64,000 nucleotides of DNA from Camelus ferus (GCF_009834535.1 NC_045696.1:15254001-15318000); one strand, 5' to 3'; numbered from the stretch's first letter, positions 33,065-61,976 are shown. Notes: a model not told the origin generated them from the sequence alone. Program-made: numbers and translations.

Positions 33065-34787
33065 CCAAATTCATGACTTGAGGACTCTGAGAGTTTCCAG
33101 CTCCTGCTGGGTAGCTCTAATCACAAAGTCACTTGGCAACTCATGATTGTATATTCTGACTCTGTCAGGTCTCAGTAGTGTGTCAGAAGCTGCTTTATTA
33201 GTGGTGTGTACTTCCCTGCTGCAGATGGCATGACCTTGCTCCAGGACACTAGGGATTTTCATTGCAAGTCTCCCTTTGGAGTTTGCCAGAAACATCATGA
33301 TGTCTTTTTGTTTTGCTTTAAACCAGATACCTTTAGAACCATGGGATCTACCTGAGCACATGTCCTTATGGCAAGGACTGCTTGTTGTAGCCATTTAAGT
33401 ATCTTTCTCTCTGCCCCACTTACAACTAGAGACCTTCCACGCCATTTAATAAATGGGTTGGAGTAATGTCCCTAAATGTGGACTTGAAAAAGTCTACCAA
33501 CTTGGGCTTCTGTTTTAGTGGAGGGAGAGACAAAGTTCAATAACTTTTCCTTGACTTTAGAAGGGCTACCCCAGGTTGCCCTAGACACCTGGAGTCCTTA
33601 AAATAACACCAACGTAGTAGGCTCTTGGATGTTTTTGAGTTCATTTTTCATCCTCTGGAGTGCATATTTCTTATCAAAGCATCCTGAATTGATATTACTC
33701 GCTATCAGTTCTAATTGACATGACGTCTTCAACACTGTGGACCAATGAGGATTCTGAAGAATAGCCAGATGGACCAAGGTCGTTTGGACTATCTATTGTG
33801 ACCAAGAAAGAGTAGGAAATTTAACAGAATCCTGGAGCAAGACTATGGATAAATACAACATTTTTACTTGTGAATTGTTTCTAATCCTATTTTCCAAGGA
33901 CTTTTTGAAAAATAATGCATTCACTGTATCAACAGCCACACCAGAGGTTGTGTTAATCCAGTTTAGTAAGGACACCACATCTGACACAGCATCTGTGATT
34001 TGGTATGCTACTTAATTAAATTTGTGGTTGTAGTTACTCCAGTTGTGAGGCACATGGGGTCGGGAGGCTAAGGAGATAGGGAGCTGATTAGCCCCTAAGG
34101 AGGGCAAGCATTATCTTGTAAGACACCTGACACATCTGAGGGCTTCTGGAGGGTCTTGAAGGAAGGAAGATAGAGTCAGGTTGTCTTTCAATAAGGGAGG
34201 AGGGGGATATTTGTTCAGTCTTAGTGGGTTCAGGGAAATCTGGAAGTTCTAAGATTCAGAGCCCCATTTTTTTCTTATCAGAGCCTTTACTTGGGCACAG
34301 ACTTGATGAGCTGATCAATCATCTTTGAAGTTCTGCTATTCTTGTCATTAGGTTATAAGCCTGGTCTTTAAATTGGTCATTGATCAGGCTATTAAGGATA
34401 TGTGCTTTTAAAACACTGCCAGGGAGACCCTCTGACATCCACTGTCTTTCTGAATTTGTGTCTGATCTCCTTGCACCTGTCATTTTTACTTTTGAAGTCA
34501 TGAGCAAAAGTCACTCAGTGTCACAGTCATTGTGATTACTATTTCCCCATGCCTCTCAAACACCCAATATATTGCTCAAGCCAGTGCATTCCTTCCACCT
34601 GCATCCTATTTCAGTTCACCAGGAATGAAAAATTTTTTTGTTTTACTTCCATGGTATTCCAGGAAATGGTGATACTCTGATTCTCCAACTACTTTCAGTG
34701 ATGTCCGCATTGTCACACAGCCAGTGGGAGGTTTAACTCCGGACTCATTCTTAGGGACTGCTTCCTAGGGTCATTCCTTGAACAAAC
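33065..34787 (-). mobile_element. Decayed ERVL internal region (leader, gag, RT)
   Basis: ORF 33793-33987 gives SDVVSLLNWINTTSG..VDTVNALF (ERVL PDVVSLLEQINT..IDLANAFF). DPMVL and WSKxMPS motifs lie near 33340-33225. The region directly follows the LTR at 34788-35308. Confidence 0.85.
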
Positions 34788-35308
34788 TGTCTTAGATTAG
34801 ATTTTCTAGAAGCAAAGTCTAAAACAGAAATTTGAGTGCATACACTCTTTAGGAAAAAGAATTCATGACAGTGAAAGAAGCAATGGAAAGGAAGGCAAAT
34901 GGCTGAGCAAGGATGCATCTCAGGTAAAGTCTAATACTGACCTGATCAATGGGGCACCCTTTTTTTTTTTTAATGGCAATACTGGGGATTGAGCCCAGGA
35001 CCCTGTGTGTGCTAAGCATGTGCTCCGCCACTAAGCCATACCCACTCTCCAGTAGGAAGCTCTTGGGCAAAAACCATGAGTTGCCTAACCTTGAGACAAG
35101 GGGATCAAGCTTTGTATCCTCATAACAGTAAGTCTTCACAATGGGCTATCTCCTGTGGTAAACAGTGGAACATAAGCTTCTTGCCAGGCAGCACCCATGG
35201 GGAAAGGGGAATGAGCATTATGAGAGGTATAATCAACCCTTCTAGCAACTGGGAAATGTGTACACTAGCTTGTGAAGGGGATCCAAGTGGGACACCGAAT
35301 GCACCTAC
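34788..35308 (-). mobile_element. LTR16-like 5' LTR of the ERVL remnant (contains a SINE)
   Basis: 'tgtcttagattagattttctagaagcaaagtctaaaacagaaatttgagtgca' is an LTR16-type 3' end in antisense, abutting the internal leader. Confidence 0.75.
34960..35050 (-). mobile_element. tRNA-derived SINE (Vic-1-like)
   Basis: Reverse complement is GGGTATGGCTTAGTGGCGGAGCACATGCTTAGCAC..GGTCCTGGGCTCAATCCCCAGTA plus polyA, with A and B boxes. Confidence 0.88.
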
Positions 35309-36522: not shown

Positions 36523-36767
36523 TTTTTTTAATTGAAGTACAGTCAGTTACAATGTGTCAATTTCTGGTGTACAGCACAATGTCTCAGTCATGCATATACA
36601 TACATATATTTGTTTTCATATTCTTTTTCATAAAAAGCTATTGCAAGTTATTGAATATAGTTCCCTGTGCTATACAGAAGGGGGTGGAAAGGAATAAATT
36701 TGGGAGTTTGCGATTTGCATACATTAGCCAGTATATATAAAAACAGATTAGAAAAACAAATTTCTTC
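36523..36767 (-). mobile_element. 5'-inverted (twin-primed) truncated LINE-1
   Basis: 36523-36678 is the L1 terminal 3' UTR plus polyA on the minus strand. 36679-36767 is the immediately upstream 3' UTR segment on the plus strand (compare the uninverted copy at 60480-60720). Confidence 0.88.
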
Positions 36768-36959
36768 AGTATAACCACCTTCTGGTTATGTTTAAAACAT
36801 ATTATGATATAAAAAAAAACTCATGATCTAGAAATTTTCTGGAACTAAAAGCTAAATTAAAAATCTAAGAATTTGCATTTGATTTGAGTCATCAGATAGA
36901 TTGGTTAACAAAGTTATTCAGAATGTCTCTGCTTTCTCAATGAGCTGAGTCTAGATTTG

Positions 36960-37063
36960 AATTTATACTTATTTATTTTTAATTGAAGTATAGTTGATTT
37001 ACAATACTGTGTTAAATTCAGGTGTACAGCATAGTGATTTGTTTCTGTTTTTTTGCAAATTCT
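36960..37063 (-). mobile_element. LINE-1 extreme 3' end (about 85 nt plus decayed polyA), joined to a 7SK copy
   Basis: Reads 'ttttttaattgaagtatagttgatttacaatactgtgttaaattcaggtgtacagcatagtgatt'. Confidence 0.88.
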
Positions 37064-37064
37064 A

Positions 37065-37287
37065 GGATGTGAGGGCAATCTGGCTGTGACATCTGTCACC
37101 CCGTGTTGATGTGCAGTGTTGATCACCAGTGTTGATGTCATCTCCTGATCCTGCTGACTAGGCGGATGTCCCGTTCCTCTGTCCTCTGTCCTGTCCCTGT
37201 ACCTTTCCAGATAGAGGAGGACCTTTCTTCGGTCAAGGGTACACGAAGAGTTGCGTTCCTCTGCTAGAACTTCCAAAGAAGCTCTTA
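37065..37287 (+). pseudogene. RN7SK: 7SK snRNA retropseudogene, 5'-complete and 3'-truncated near nt 240
   Basis: Starts GGATGTGAGGGCaATCTGGCTGtGACATCTGTCACCCC. Contains GATAGAGGAGGACC..TCTTCGGTCAAGGGTA and CTGCTAGAAC.TCCAAA.AAGCTCT. It has internal indels, no 3' hairpin and no upstream promoter. Confidence 0.93.
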
Positions 37288-40200
37288 GCCTAGATTTTAA
37301 ACCTCATTCATATTCCATAATTTATTCTTAGCAGCTTCAGTTTTCAAATATCCCTTGCTGTACATAAACATCATACATCAAAATTTTAATTGCTAATAAT
37401 TTCAGAAAGAAGTCAAAAGTTTTCACTGATTTCCTAAATTAAAAATCTTATGCAAAAGGTGTTATGCAATTTTATCTACATATGTTGGAGATACTCCTTC
37501 TGTCTGTGAACTTCTTTAGTCTTATTTATCTTATCACAAAGAAATGCTGACAGTAGGCAATCAATATAATTGATGCATGAAGTATAGTATCTTATGACTG
37601 ATAAATGAATGATTCCAAAAAAAAATAATGAATAAGTGGTGTTTACAGAATGTCCTCACTTGACTGCCATGAAACAGGACTTCTTAATAGTTATATTAAA
37701 TGTAAGTTTTTCTTCTCCACACCTCCACTCCTCTCCACCTCCACCCTGTGATTAGAGAAGCCAGAAATTTAATTTAAAGATTACTGCAAGAAATACAATT
37801 TATTCATAATAAATTGATGCAATAAATTGATTCAGAAATTTTGAAGAACAACAGAACTTCTTGGTCTTTCCATGCACACTAAAGAATTAATAACGAATTA
37901 TTCAGTCAGTCACATTTGAGAATGATTTTTTAAGAAGAATGAAGATTATACTCTTGTATTAAAAACTGTGAAAGATATTGAGATGTCACAGGGTTGCCAA
38001 ACCTTAAATGACCTTTCTAAAACATATTTTAATGCCAAAGGCATGTGATGGAAAATAAATTTCTTTTTTAAGAGATAAATTTTAGATATTTATTATAATA
38101 TTACAAAATAACCTATTGGCATAATTTTGCAAAACCACTAATGCTCTCTTTATCATGACCAAGTTGTTGTGTCTAAGTTTTTCAACCACAAGTGACTAAA
38201 GCATCAAACAAAACATAAGCCAATGATATCTTTTTTTTCTCAATTTACTTTGATCAGTCTTGAATTTAATTATTCAGGACTATTCAGAAGCAAATAATAA
38301 CATAAGTTTGTGGGTAAAAAGCGGAACCATGAGTTCTATTGTTTAATGTTACCAATTGTTTCAGATATGAAAAAACATAAACACAAATACCAAACTGTCT
38401 TAATACCAAATGCTACATTTGTCTTTTATTCAAATTAATGAAGTAAACACCAGACATTTTCCTTTAGAAGTTATGTAATTTTCACTAAGCTTCATAATAT
38501 TCAACCACATGAAATGTTTCTTTCATAAATTCAATTGACATGCTTTTCTTGGTTCAATCAGAGAAGTCTAATTTCAGTAACTCAAAAGACACTATCTTAA
38601 TTACACAGATTAAAATGACAGGTGTCCCTAAACAAAAAAAGCCCTAAGGGGTTGATTTGGCACCATTTTTGTTCTGTCTGTCTGCAGAGGTGGAAAGAAA
38701 CTGTCAGATTCTGTCTCTTAGACCAATTATTTAAGTGAACTGGTGATTGTAGTTTAATCAGAAAAATACTTTTTAAGAGAAGAAAATGACTGTACTTGAC
38801 ACTCTTAATAAGGACTTAAACAGGATTAACATATTGAAATCTTCATGTTTTCTGAAGAAGAAAATGGGGTTGGAGCAGCAGAAGGAAATTGGAAAGTTGG
38901 CAGAAATATTTCACCTCACCCTTAATAACAGGAATTAGAGGTATATGGAAATGCTGTCCAATGTTAATATTTTTTCACCTCAAAAATCAGGATTGAAACA
39001 CTGAAGCTATTTTAAACACATAGCTATTCTCCACTATAGTCATTGAGGTTTTATATATGAAATCATAGTGATACTCAACAATAAACTTGAATCAAGCAAT
39101 TTCTGGGGTGAAAAACGGAAAAAGACACTAGGTAATAAAGTACAGGTTAATATATGTTGAAACAAAATCAATCTTGGTATCACGTAATGAAAAATAACAG
39201 GATATGAGTGTATTAAAGCAATTAAAACAAACATAGAAATTGATAAAAATAATAATTATGGTAATTTAATTGAGAGGAAAAGAAAGTCATTGATTTCTGC
39301 CATTAATGCCAATATATTTCTTTGAATAATGGATCTTGAAATTCTAGCAATATATAATAAGACTTGGTTAATAATGTGACTTTTTTTCAAATTTACAGTA
39401 CTACCATATACAAGAACAGATATCTTCAAGAAACTAATGATACAGAAGGAAGTTAAAAATTTAAAAATTGGAGCCCCACTCCCTTCCATTTAAAACTGCA
39501 ACGAATTTTGTTATAATATTCACCAACCTGCATACAATCTCATATATTTAGTCTTCAAGGCCTTTAAAATATACATTAATTATGTATGACAAATTTTATA
39601 TTTTATACTTTCTGTCTATATCTAGTTATAGTATTACGGTAAGTCTGTCTTAGATAGTCTTAAAATCAGCTCCAACATTTTAACAGTAATTTGCATTTAA
39701 ATGTGCCCTTTATATAGGGAAAATCAGCCCGAGAGGAGATCATTTGTACTATTCTTCAAGGAGCAAAATCTCCATGGAACTAAGCATTATAGTGACACCA
39801 AAAATTAAGACTAAACCATGAGAACATGGCGCAAGGCCACAATGCAGAATGAATATTTGCACATTGGTAACATTGAGGAAACCAATTTTATTAGAAAATC
39901 TTTGCTAGGAAAAAATTCTGCACAAGAATGGGTTGTAAAGGTCCGGCTTTTGCTGGGAAGAGCTGTTCGAAGAGGCCAAGAAGAGCTAAACAAGTTATTT
40001 AAATAGGAGAGTATTACAAAGAAAAGTAGTGAGCAGAATAGCCAACCCCAAATTGCTGCCCTTGGAAACATTGGAGGTAGAGAGATGCGATCAGATACTG
40101 CTTTCGTTATCTCCCTGAGAACTAATAAAAACCTAATCTAGGGAGCTAATAGAGAAAGAGAGAATTCTCAGCCGATGTTACACAGGAAGTAGAAATATCT

Positions 40201-60741: not shown

Positions 60742-61496
60742 ATATATGGGAACTAGAACCTCTGGAAGGAAAGTTCAGAAGGTTCTCATGCTTTTTTGAT
60801 AACTCTGCTCCCAAATGGAATGTCAATGTAAAGTCAAATAGAGGAGAGAGAGAGGGGCCCTGTAAACAGAAACCTCTTACAAAGAAAGTTCAGCAGTTTT
60901 CCACTCGACTTTGAATCCTAGTAGAGAACAAAAAAGTACACAGAAGAAAGTCTTAAACATTTAAACAATAAACTCTGAACTCCAAAGAAAAAGGATTTAA
61001 AAGCCTAGCTGATTCAAGAGAATGATTAAGAAGTAGGAAAAAAAGAACAAGGCAATGGGCTTATAAAAGACAATAAATTTTATTTTTAAAATGTAATTTA
61101 TAAAGTAACACTGAAAAGAATTTATAGCTTCTGAGTCCCCTGCCCCAAATCACATGATATTTGTAATCAAAAAATAAGAATTACAGCTGTTTTGTAAGGA
61201 AAATTATGCAATTGCATAGTCCAGTCTTAGGCAATTTTTTATCTACTATTTTACCACTTACCATAAATCCACAGGTATTACAATGCACATGCTTTTTTAA
61301 TGTGACTGTTTTGAAATCACAGTTGGTCTTCCTAGTTACGTTAGCTGCAGAGAAAAATATGTGCCATAACTAAAAATCTAAAACAAAGCATCAGTATTAA
61401 ATCTAATACAGGATATATTATAAAATGAACTCAGTGTTTCAGTAGGTAATACACCTGGAGATGATTGGGTAAAGAAGATATGTATGTGTGAAATAC

Positions 61497-61976
61497 ATAA
61501 AATAGAATGAAATGATGCCATTTGTGGCAACGTGGATGGACCTAGTGATTATCATAATAAGTGAAGTAAGTCAAACAGAGAAAGACAAATATCATATGAT
61601 GTCACTTATATGTGGAATCTAAAAACAATAACACAAATGAACTTATTTACAAAACAGAAACAGACTCACAGACATAGAAAACAAACTATGATTACTAAAG
61701 GGGGAAGGGCTGGAGGGAGGGATAAATTAGGAGACTAGGATTAGCAAATACAAACTACTATATATAAAATAACAAAAATCCCAACAGAGTTGTTTCTGAT
61801 AAATAACAAAGTCTTACTGGATTGTCAATGGCTTGTAATAACCTGTAATGAAAAAGAACATATAATAATTGAATCACTATGTATATGTGTATACATATAC
61901 AATTGTATAATTGAATCACTATGGTGTACACCAGCAACCAAAACAACATTGTAAATCAGATATACTTCAATGAAAA
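61497..61976 (+). mobile_element. 5'-truncated LINE-1 3' end
   Basis: Reads 'atgccatttgtggcaacgtggatggacctag...tcacttatatgtggaatctaaaaa...acagactcacagacatagaaaac...tatacttcaat'. Confidence 0.9.

Follow-up and report, generated by a model that had tools for sequence, protein, structure and literature searches.

We analysed a 64,000-nucleotide (nt) stretch of the Camelus ferus genome (called the window; positions 15254001-15318000 on contig C1 of a 2.09-Gb assembly comprising 2043 contigs), and focused on a locus at which a short piece of the tail of a LINE-1 (L1) retrotransposon and a truncated copy of 7SK RNA stand head-to-head inside one target-site duplication (TSD). The features of this locus, in window coordinates, are as follows.

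36948-36958, no strand: left copy of the TSD, AGTCTAGATTT, read directly; 10 of 11 positions match the right copy.
36959-36981, minus strand: A-rich tail of the L1, degenerate, 23 nt (T-rich on the plus strand), lying between the TSD and the L1 3′ terminus.
36982-37064, minus strand: last 83 nt of the LINE-1 3′ untranslated region (UTR), 5′-truncated and antisense to 7SK, placed by alignment with L1 3′ ends.
37065-37285, plus strand: 7SK retrocopy, nt 1-238, with no A tail, placed by an Rfam match and by alignment with the genome's own 7SK gene.
37286-37288, no strand: junction bases T, A and G, ambiguous in the alignment with the 7SK gene.
37287-37298, no strand: right copy of the TSD, AGCCTAGATTT (37287-37297), plus T, read directly and assessed by a random-placement test.
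37295-37300, plus strand: L1 endonuclease site TTTT/AA (TT/AAAA in the L1 sense orientation), read directly.

Read in the sense orientation of L1, the small-RNA segment directly precedes the L1 fragment on its 5′ side and has the opposite strand, with 0 bases between the two. A prediction made earlier from this stretch of DNA (the original prediction) had placed an antisense L1 3′ end up to about 37063, followed by 7SK from its first base at 37065 to about nt 240. All of its elements were confirmed, none of them displaced by more than 1-2 nt from the position given.

The 7SK part was recognized by the Rfam family RF00100, which matches 37065-37325 (76.3 bits, E = 6.4e-19), the portion of the match beyond ~37285 being padding across gaps. 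A search of the whole genome with the same family gave a best match, among 20 scored, of 395.5 bits (L001:1501-1833), which was taken as the functional 7SK gene. Alignment of the window copy to this gene places gene nt 1 at 37065, from where the plus strand opens with GGATGTGAGGG, and gene nt 238 at 37285, with a possible A240 at 37287. The copy is identical to the gene in 174 of 201 ungapped columns (86.6%). Its age can be given only as a rank, this identity being the second lowest of the 58 truncated copies described below. It contains a 15-nt tandem insertion after nt 38 (37103-37117), a 4-nt insertion, and internal deletions of ~5, 29 and 2 nt. Altogether, ~34 nt of the region corresponding to nt 129-171 of the gene are missing around 37190-37200. 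The 15-nt insertion and the ~34-nt loss may be post-insertion changes or slips during reverse transcription.

Past nt 238, the gene continues with CAAGGTCCATTT and the window with TAGCCTAGATTT, which are identical at 6 of 12 positions. Judged from these bases, the junction at 37286-37288 may represent 7SK nt 239-242, altered by one substitution and by one deletion, or it may be the start of the TSD. In the second case, the TSD may share 1-2 nt of microhomology with 7SK.

The L1 part was examined first within the window and then across the genome. A 21-base motif from the L1 piece recurs once in the window, on the other strand at 61948-61968, and any match to it was found in 0 of 100 shuffles. 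The minus strand of the locus aligns with a sense L1 3′ end at 61780-61975. The surrounding segment (61470-61975, plus strand) contains a decayed C-terminus of L1 ORF2 and a 3′ UTR in sense orientation, and provides an in-window reference for L1 orientation.

For the genome search, 36948-37300 was used as the query, and 40 matches were scored from 1210 first-look candidates. Thirty-nine of these cover the L1 part only (query positions 5-117, 81–94% identity), and the remaining one is the locus itself (1-353). A second copy of the L1-7SK junction was not found among the 40 scored matches, the self-match alone spanning both parts. We fetched 29 of the L1 3′ ends, and 9 of them extend to query position 116-117, the last base before 7SK nt 1. 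In one copy (L027), an open reading frame (ORF) on the same strand, ~320 nt upstream of the homologous 3′ end, corresponds to residues 1119-1227 of human LINE-1 ORF2p in a search of PDB sequences (E = 2e-42); a Pfam search of the same ORF fragment returned 0 families. Because the ORF of L027 lies upstream on the same strand and matches human ORF2p, it fixes both the identity of the fragment as L1 and its antisense orientation.

Multiple alignments of these copies define the L1-7SK join. The antisense strand of the L1 subfamily reads ...AGTGATT..TTTTTGCAGATTATATTCCATTATAGG..., and the locus tracks the subfamily to ...GCAAATTCTA before passing into 7SK. The join is direct, with no filler and no shared base, and the other copies continue with unrelated bases. 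At its opposite end, the L1 3′ terminus reads ...CTTCAAT on the minus strand, followed by the tail, in which 14 of 23 bases are A. The other L1 copies have A runs or patterned A-rich tails at this position.

The composite is flanked by one direct repeat (AGTCTAGATTT and AGCCTAGATTT, 10/11), and the right copy is followed by T and then AA, which gives an exact TTTT/AA. On the plus strand, 37287-37300 thus reads AGCCTAGATTTT|AA. This motif is described as the L1 endonuclease site in the available parts of PMC13174262 and PMC5322556. The repeat was scored with ample slack in its position: the end of the left copy was allowed to lie 0-30 nt ahead of the L1 core, and the start of the right copy at -5 to +6 nt of the 7SK end. 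Of 3945 placements chosen at random in the window, 56 (1.4%) reached the observed score, in which the TTTT/AA motif was not counted. The opposite TSD boundary (CTG|AGTC) is neither A-rich nor endonuclease-like.

The left TSD copy is separated by 106 nt from 7SK nt 1, which lies downstream of it. A search for abutting repeats at the locus revealed no separate TSD for 7SK alone or for L1 alone. When the 45 nt preceding 7SK nt 1 were locally aligned with the flank on the downstream side, the score was 5-6, similar to cases attributable to chance. The single TSD with its exact TTTT/AA at 37295-37300, and a 7SK copy with no tail or TSD of its own, are as originally predicted.

We surveyed 3′-truncated 7SK copies genome-wide for antisense L1 at their 5′ base, as had been proposed together with the original prediction. 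A pattern search with gene nt 1-38, in which up to 3 mismatches were allowed, gave 63 sites, compared with 0 for the reversed control pattern. The flanks of 50 of these sites were fetched, and 7 matches missed by the pattern were added from the 20 best of the Rfam search. Removal of the gene itself and of one duplicate on an unplaced scaffold (L100, equal to L081) left 69 retrocopies. The survey covers copies with no more than 3 differences from the gene in their first 38 nt, together with the seven Rfam matches.

The majority of the retrocopies (58 of 69) end at nt 233-250, 49 of them at nt 238-243, and none of these has an A tail. A further 9 of the 69 reach nt 328-333, and in 7 of these an A-rich run follows, as judged by eye. 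The other 2 end at nt 56 and nt 223. TSDs abutting both nt 1 and the 3′ end are present in 50 of the 58 truncated copies. The start of the TSD in tailless copies usually overlaps the 7SK sequence ...CAAG by 2-5 nt, an overlap of the kind that is possible at 37286-37288 of the window, and in most of them the target duplication, inspected by eye, begins with A-rich bases. The 8 truncated copies that do not have an abutting TSD are the present locus, L008, L013, L051, L070, L090, L091 and L092. An antisense L1 3′ end at 7SK nt 1 occurs in 1 of the 58, the present locus alone.

The end-point hot spot at nt 238-243 is unpaired in the Rfam consensus structure, where it forms the apical loop of stem-loop 3. 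A minimum-energy fold of gene nt 196-280 also places nt 237-241 in a loop, in a fold that is not better than those of shuffled sequences (z = -0.97). The 7SK end of the chimera, nt 238, falls within the hot spot of the tailless copies.

Several other retrocopies were inspected individually. L056, L058, L083 and L089 have ordinary abutting TSDs once mismatches are allowed. Distant candidate TSDs of copies with no abutting one (L051, L091, L089, L002 and others) were rejected as chance repeats containing 7SK bases or low-complexity runs. In L066, an L1 end of the other orientation is found 130-200 nt upstream, and this copy has an ordinary abutting TSD as well. L013 (G000:C10:11532722-11536032) is a tailless copy of 7SK nt 1-241 with no abutting TSD, and has a 16-nt AT-rich repeat (14/16, after TT) 569 nt upstream, ~585 nt before nt 1. 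It may be a co-oriented chimera with a 569-nt 5′ segment, or the repeat may be a chance match in low-complexity sequence. L003 (G000:C1:15568285-15568615, minus strand), ~277 kb from the locus, is a full-length 7SK retrocopy with an A-rich tail, and is unrelated to the chimera.

The locus thus combines two oppositely oriented parts, a direct join, a single flanking TSD with an L1 endonuclease site, and a 7SK end point that is common among tailless copies. We consider it likely that this arrangement was produced by one L1-mediated integration event with two RNA templates (heterologous twin priming), as the original prediction had proposed. In such an event, L1 endonuclease would nick the plus strand at TTTT/AA (37298|37299), and the T-rich 3′ end would prime on the poly(A) of an L1 RNA, from which just ~83 nt plus tail would be copied. 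The second strand would be cut 11-12 nt away, and its 3′ end (the complement of AGYCTAG...) would prime on 7SK RNA in the apical loop of stem-loop 3, at nt ~238-242. This priming site would be the usual start site of ordinary tailless 7SK retrocopies, with 1-2 nt of pairing (AG). The 7SK complementary DNA (cDNA) would then extend to nt 1, and the two cDNA ends would be joined with no visible microhomology. The site before insertion would have contained one AGYCTAGATTTTAA and neither part.

First-strand priming on poly(A) predicts that the left TSD copy is followed at once by a T-rich tail and then by antisense L1, as observed. Second-strand priming on another RNA predicts a sense, tailless copy ending at the right TSD copy, which is also observed, and the TTTT/AA lies on the strand expected to prime on L1 poly(A). 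Because the 7SK end point equals the start site of the tailless copies, use of the accessible 7SK loop by the second-strand end is the simplest account. From this anatomy, we infer which nick came first, that the target DNA primed the copying of 7SK, and that the two halves arrived jointly.

Several observations weigh against heterologous twin priming. The structure is present in just 1 of the 58 truncated copies, and the survey shows no recurrence in this genome. The TSD has a length of just 11-12 nt, including 1 mismatch, and an unconstrained 700-nt search gives comparable scores by chance elsewhere (9 for L051, 8 for L091 and L089). The A content of the L1 tail is low (14/23). Complementarity between the second-strand end and 7SK is weak, amounting to 1-2 nt at the junction and 6/12 overall. 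Simultaneous arrival is deduced from anatomy alone. The right flank also shows some resemblance to L1, which is considered below. The original prediction had noted that the 7SK sequence after the break partly matches the TSD, and had regarded this as consistent with target-guided priming. The partial match is present (6/12), but it is weak as evidence for such priming, being expected by chance in ~9% of cases by a binomial estimate.

Tentatively, and with a fairly low probability, the 7SK end point may be set by the RNA rather than by complementarity to the target, for example if a 5′ fragment of 7SK, produced by a cut in the stem-loop 3 apical loop, travels with the L1 particle and is copied from its extreme 3′ end. 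We considered this because the same break is found with different primers, namely a T-rich first-strand nick in the 58 tailless copies and a non-T-rich second-strand end in the chimeras. If this is true, it would suggest that the actual template of retrotransposition in mammals is a previously unrecognised processed form of 7SK.

A single event without target priming of 7SK is improbable. A free 7SK cDNA could have been end-joined at the 5′ junction of the truncated L1, or the roles could have been reversed, with 7SK first and L1 second. The cDNA-cDNA join lacking microhomology and the weak complementarity between TSD and 7SK (6/12) would both fit. On the other hand, the 7SK end adjoins the TSD without extra bases and falls in the nt 238-243 hot spot of tailless copies, and the canonical TTTT/AA is on the L1 poly(A) side, not on the 7SK side.

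We regard two independent insertions as quite improbable, with 7SK arriving later between the L1 5′ end and the right TSD, or L1 arriving later between the left TSD and 7SK nt 1. Whichever part came second should have its own TSD, and no such repeat abuts 7SK or L1. Because 50 of the 58 tailless copies carry an abutting TSD, its absence at the locus is informative. The second insertion must also have hit the boundary of the first to the base. Raw material for such a coincidence is plentiful, since tailless 7SK copies are common (58/69) and L1 fragments are everywhere (1210 first-look candidates).

It is very improbable that the locus arose by insertion of a tailless 7SK into a longer antisense L1 that was already present at the site and extends into the right flank. 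The segment 37305-37370 is collinear with L1 just past the truncation point in several copies, with a best score of 20.5 that was reached by 4 of 300 controls, and this is the resemblance that counts against heterologous twin priming. However, the best of the 29 alignments of the flank has 47 of 66 columns identical (~71%), compared with 81–94% for the L1 piece, and the median score was reached by 39 of 300 control segments and is not above controls. The right flank matches only itself in the genome, and the ~20 nt between 7SK and the supposed L1 continuation, including a TSD copy, would be unexplained filler. The segment could be an older L1 remnant, or the resemblance could be due to chance.

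Finally, a pre-formed chimeric template (a master locus or RNA with antisense 7SK fused to an L1 3′ end, retrotransposed or duplicated) is hardly credible: one such RNA and ordinary target-primed reverse transcription would give the same product, but the 40 scored matches from the 2.09-Gb assembly include no second junction-spanning locus, and we know of no source for an antisense 7SK transcript whose last base is precisely the complement of nt 1.

The sequences around the locus were also searched against the genome. A paralogous empty site was not found: the right flank gave its self-match only, and the left flank (36700-36960) matches other sequences over its first 65-79 nt only. Here, 36700-36775 is the end of a repeat family, with 39 of 40 scored matches being other genomic copies (83–91% identity over 65-79 nt). 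An old L1 remnant in the left flank, which would have turned the two flanks into one interrupted collinear element, was rejected, as the median score was reached by 63 of 300 controls and the maximum by 107 of 300. Two small-RNA-like matches lie further upstream in the window. At 34153-34273 (plus strand), a weak U6atac-like match scores 22.9 bits (E = 0.014), short of the gathering score of 33. It terminates in a run of T, and may be a decayed pseudogene or a chance match. A tRNA-like match at 34974-35045 (minus strand; 22.7 bits, below the gathering score, E = 0.31) is probably the head of a tRNA-derived short interspersed element.

Both the structure and its explanation are already in print, and the locus is a further member of the class in another mammal. 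The element resembles a classical twin-primed (5′-inverted) L1, reportedly described by Ostertag and Kazazian in 2001, in that two target-primed cDNAs from one staggered break lie head to head inside one TSD. The difference is that both arms of the classical form derive from the same L1 RNA, whereas the inverted arm here is 7SK.

The closest relatives are human 7SK/L1 chimeras reported in PMC13174262 (Cell Genomics 2026; preprint February 2025), the available part of which proposes twin priming for antisense small-RNA/L1 chimeras. Table S3 of that paper lists four human 7SK/L1 chimeras, and in three of them an opposite-strand 7SK lies directly 5′ of L1, as in the window. The 7SK spans of these three are 15-238, 10-235 and 12-238, so that the 7SK start at the L1 junction is ~nt 10-15 (by RepeatMasker) and the 7SK end, next to the upstream TSD, is nt 235-238. 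A TT/AAAA site is given for one of the human loci (chr12). The present locus differs in belonging to another mammal, in its L1 piece of 83 nt compared with 0.5-2.5 kb, and in a 7SK start at exactly nt 1. Simultaneity is backed by a multi-species alignment for the human chimeras, and by anatomy alone here.

According to the same partial source (PMC13174262), L1 chimeras contain 5S rRNA, tRNA and U5 segments that are for the most part antisense to L1, with the first base of the RNA at the L1 junction and 3′ truncation at recurrent loop positions. One TSD surrounds both parts, often with an endonuclease motif. These features are shared by the present locus, which differs in RNA species; for tRNA and 5S, the paper favours pre-cleaved fragments (PMC13174262).

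The 7SK part taken by itself resembles tailless 7SK retropseudogenes, first reported in PMC2912911, which also describes twin priming, and numbering 139 in human in PMC5322556, which relates truncation to single-stranded regions and target complementarity (both papers available in part). Like the present copy, these are complete at the 5′ end, truncated at the 3′ end in a single-stranded region, and have no A tail. In the retropseudogenes, the TSD lies directly at both ends of the RNA and the target starts with A-rich bases (PMC5322556, PMC2912911), whereas at the present locus the left TSD is 106 nt off, behind an inverted L1, and the boundary on the 7SK side is not A-rich. U6/LINE-1 chimeras likewise consist of a 5′-complete small nuclear RNA copy fused to a 5′-truncated L1 3′ end within one TSD, in the available parts of PMC6789731 and PMC13174262. 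They differ in that U6 is co-oriented with L1 and usually full length, whereas the strands are opposite here. The explanation given for them, RNA ligation or template switching, cannot yield opposite orientations.

The locus leaves current views unchanged and has no evident effect on a gene. It provides a clean, base-resolved example, from a second mammalian order, of the recently described class in which small RNAs are captured antisense at L1 5′ ends. Within this class, it is set apart by its very short L1 arm and by a junction that was placed at 7SK nt 1. Chimeras and ordinary tailless retrocopies have the same 7SK end point, as do this genome and the human table. This common end point offers a practical clue to the way in which L1 reverse transcriptase initiates on RNAs that have no poly(A).

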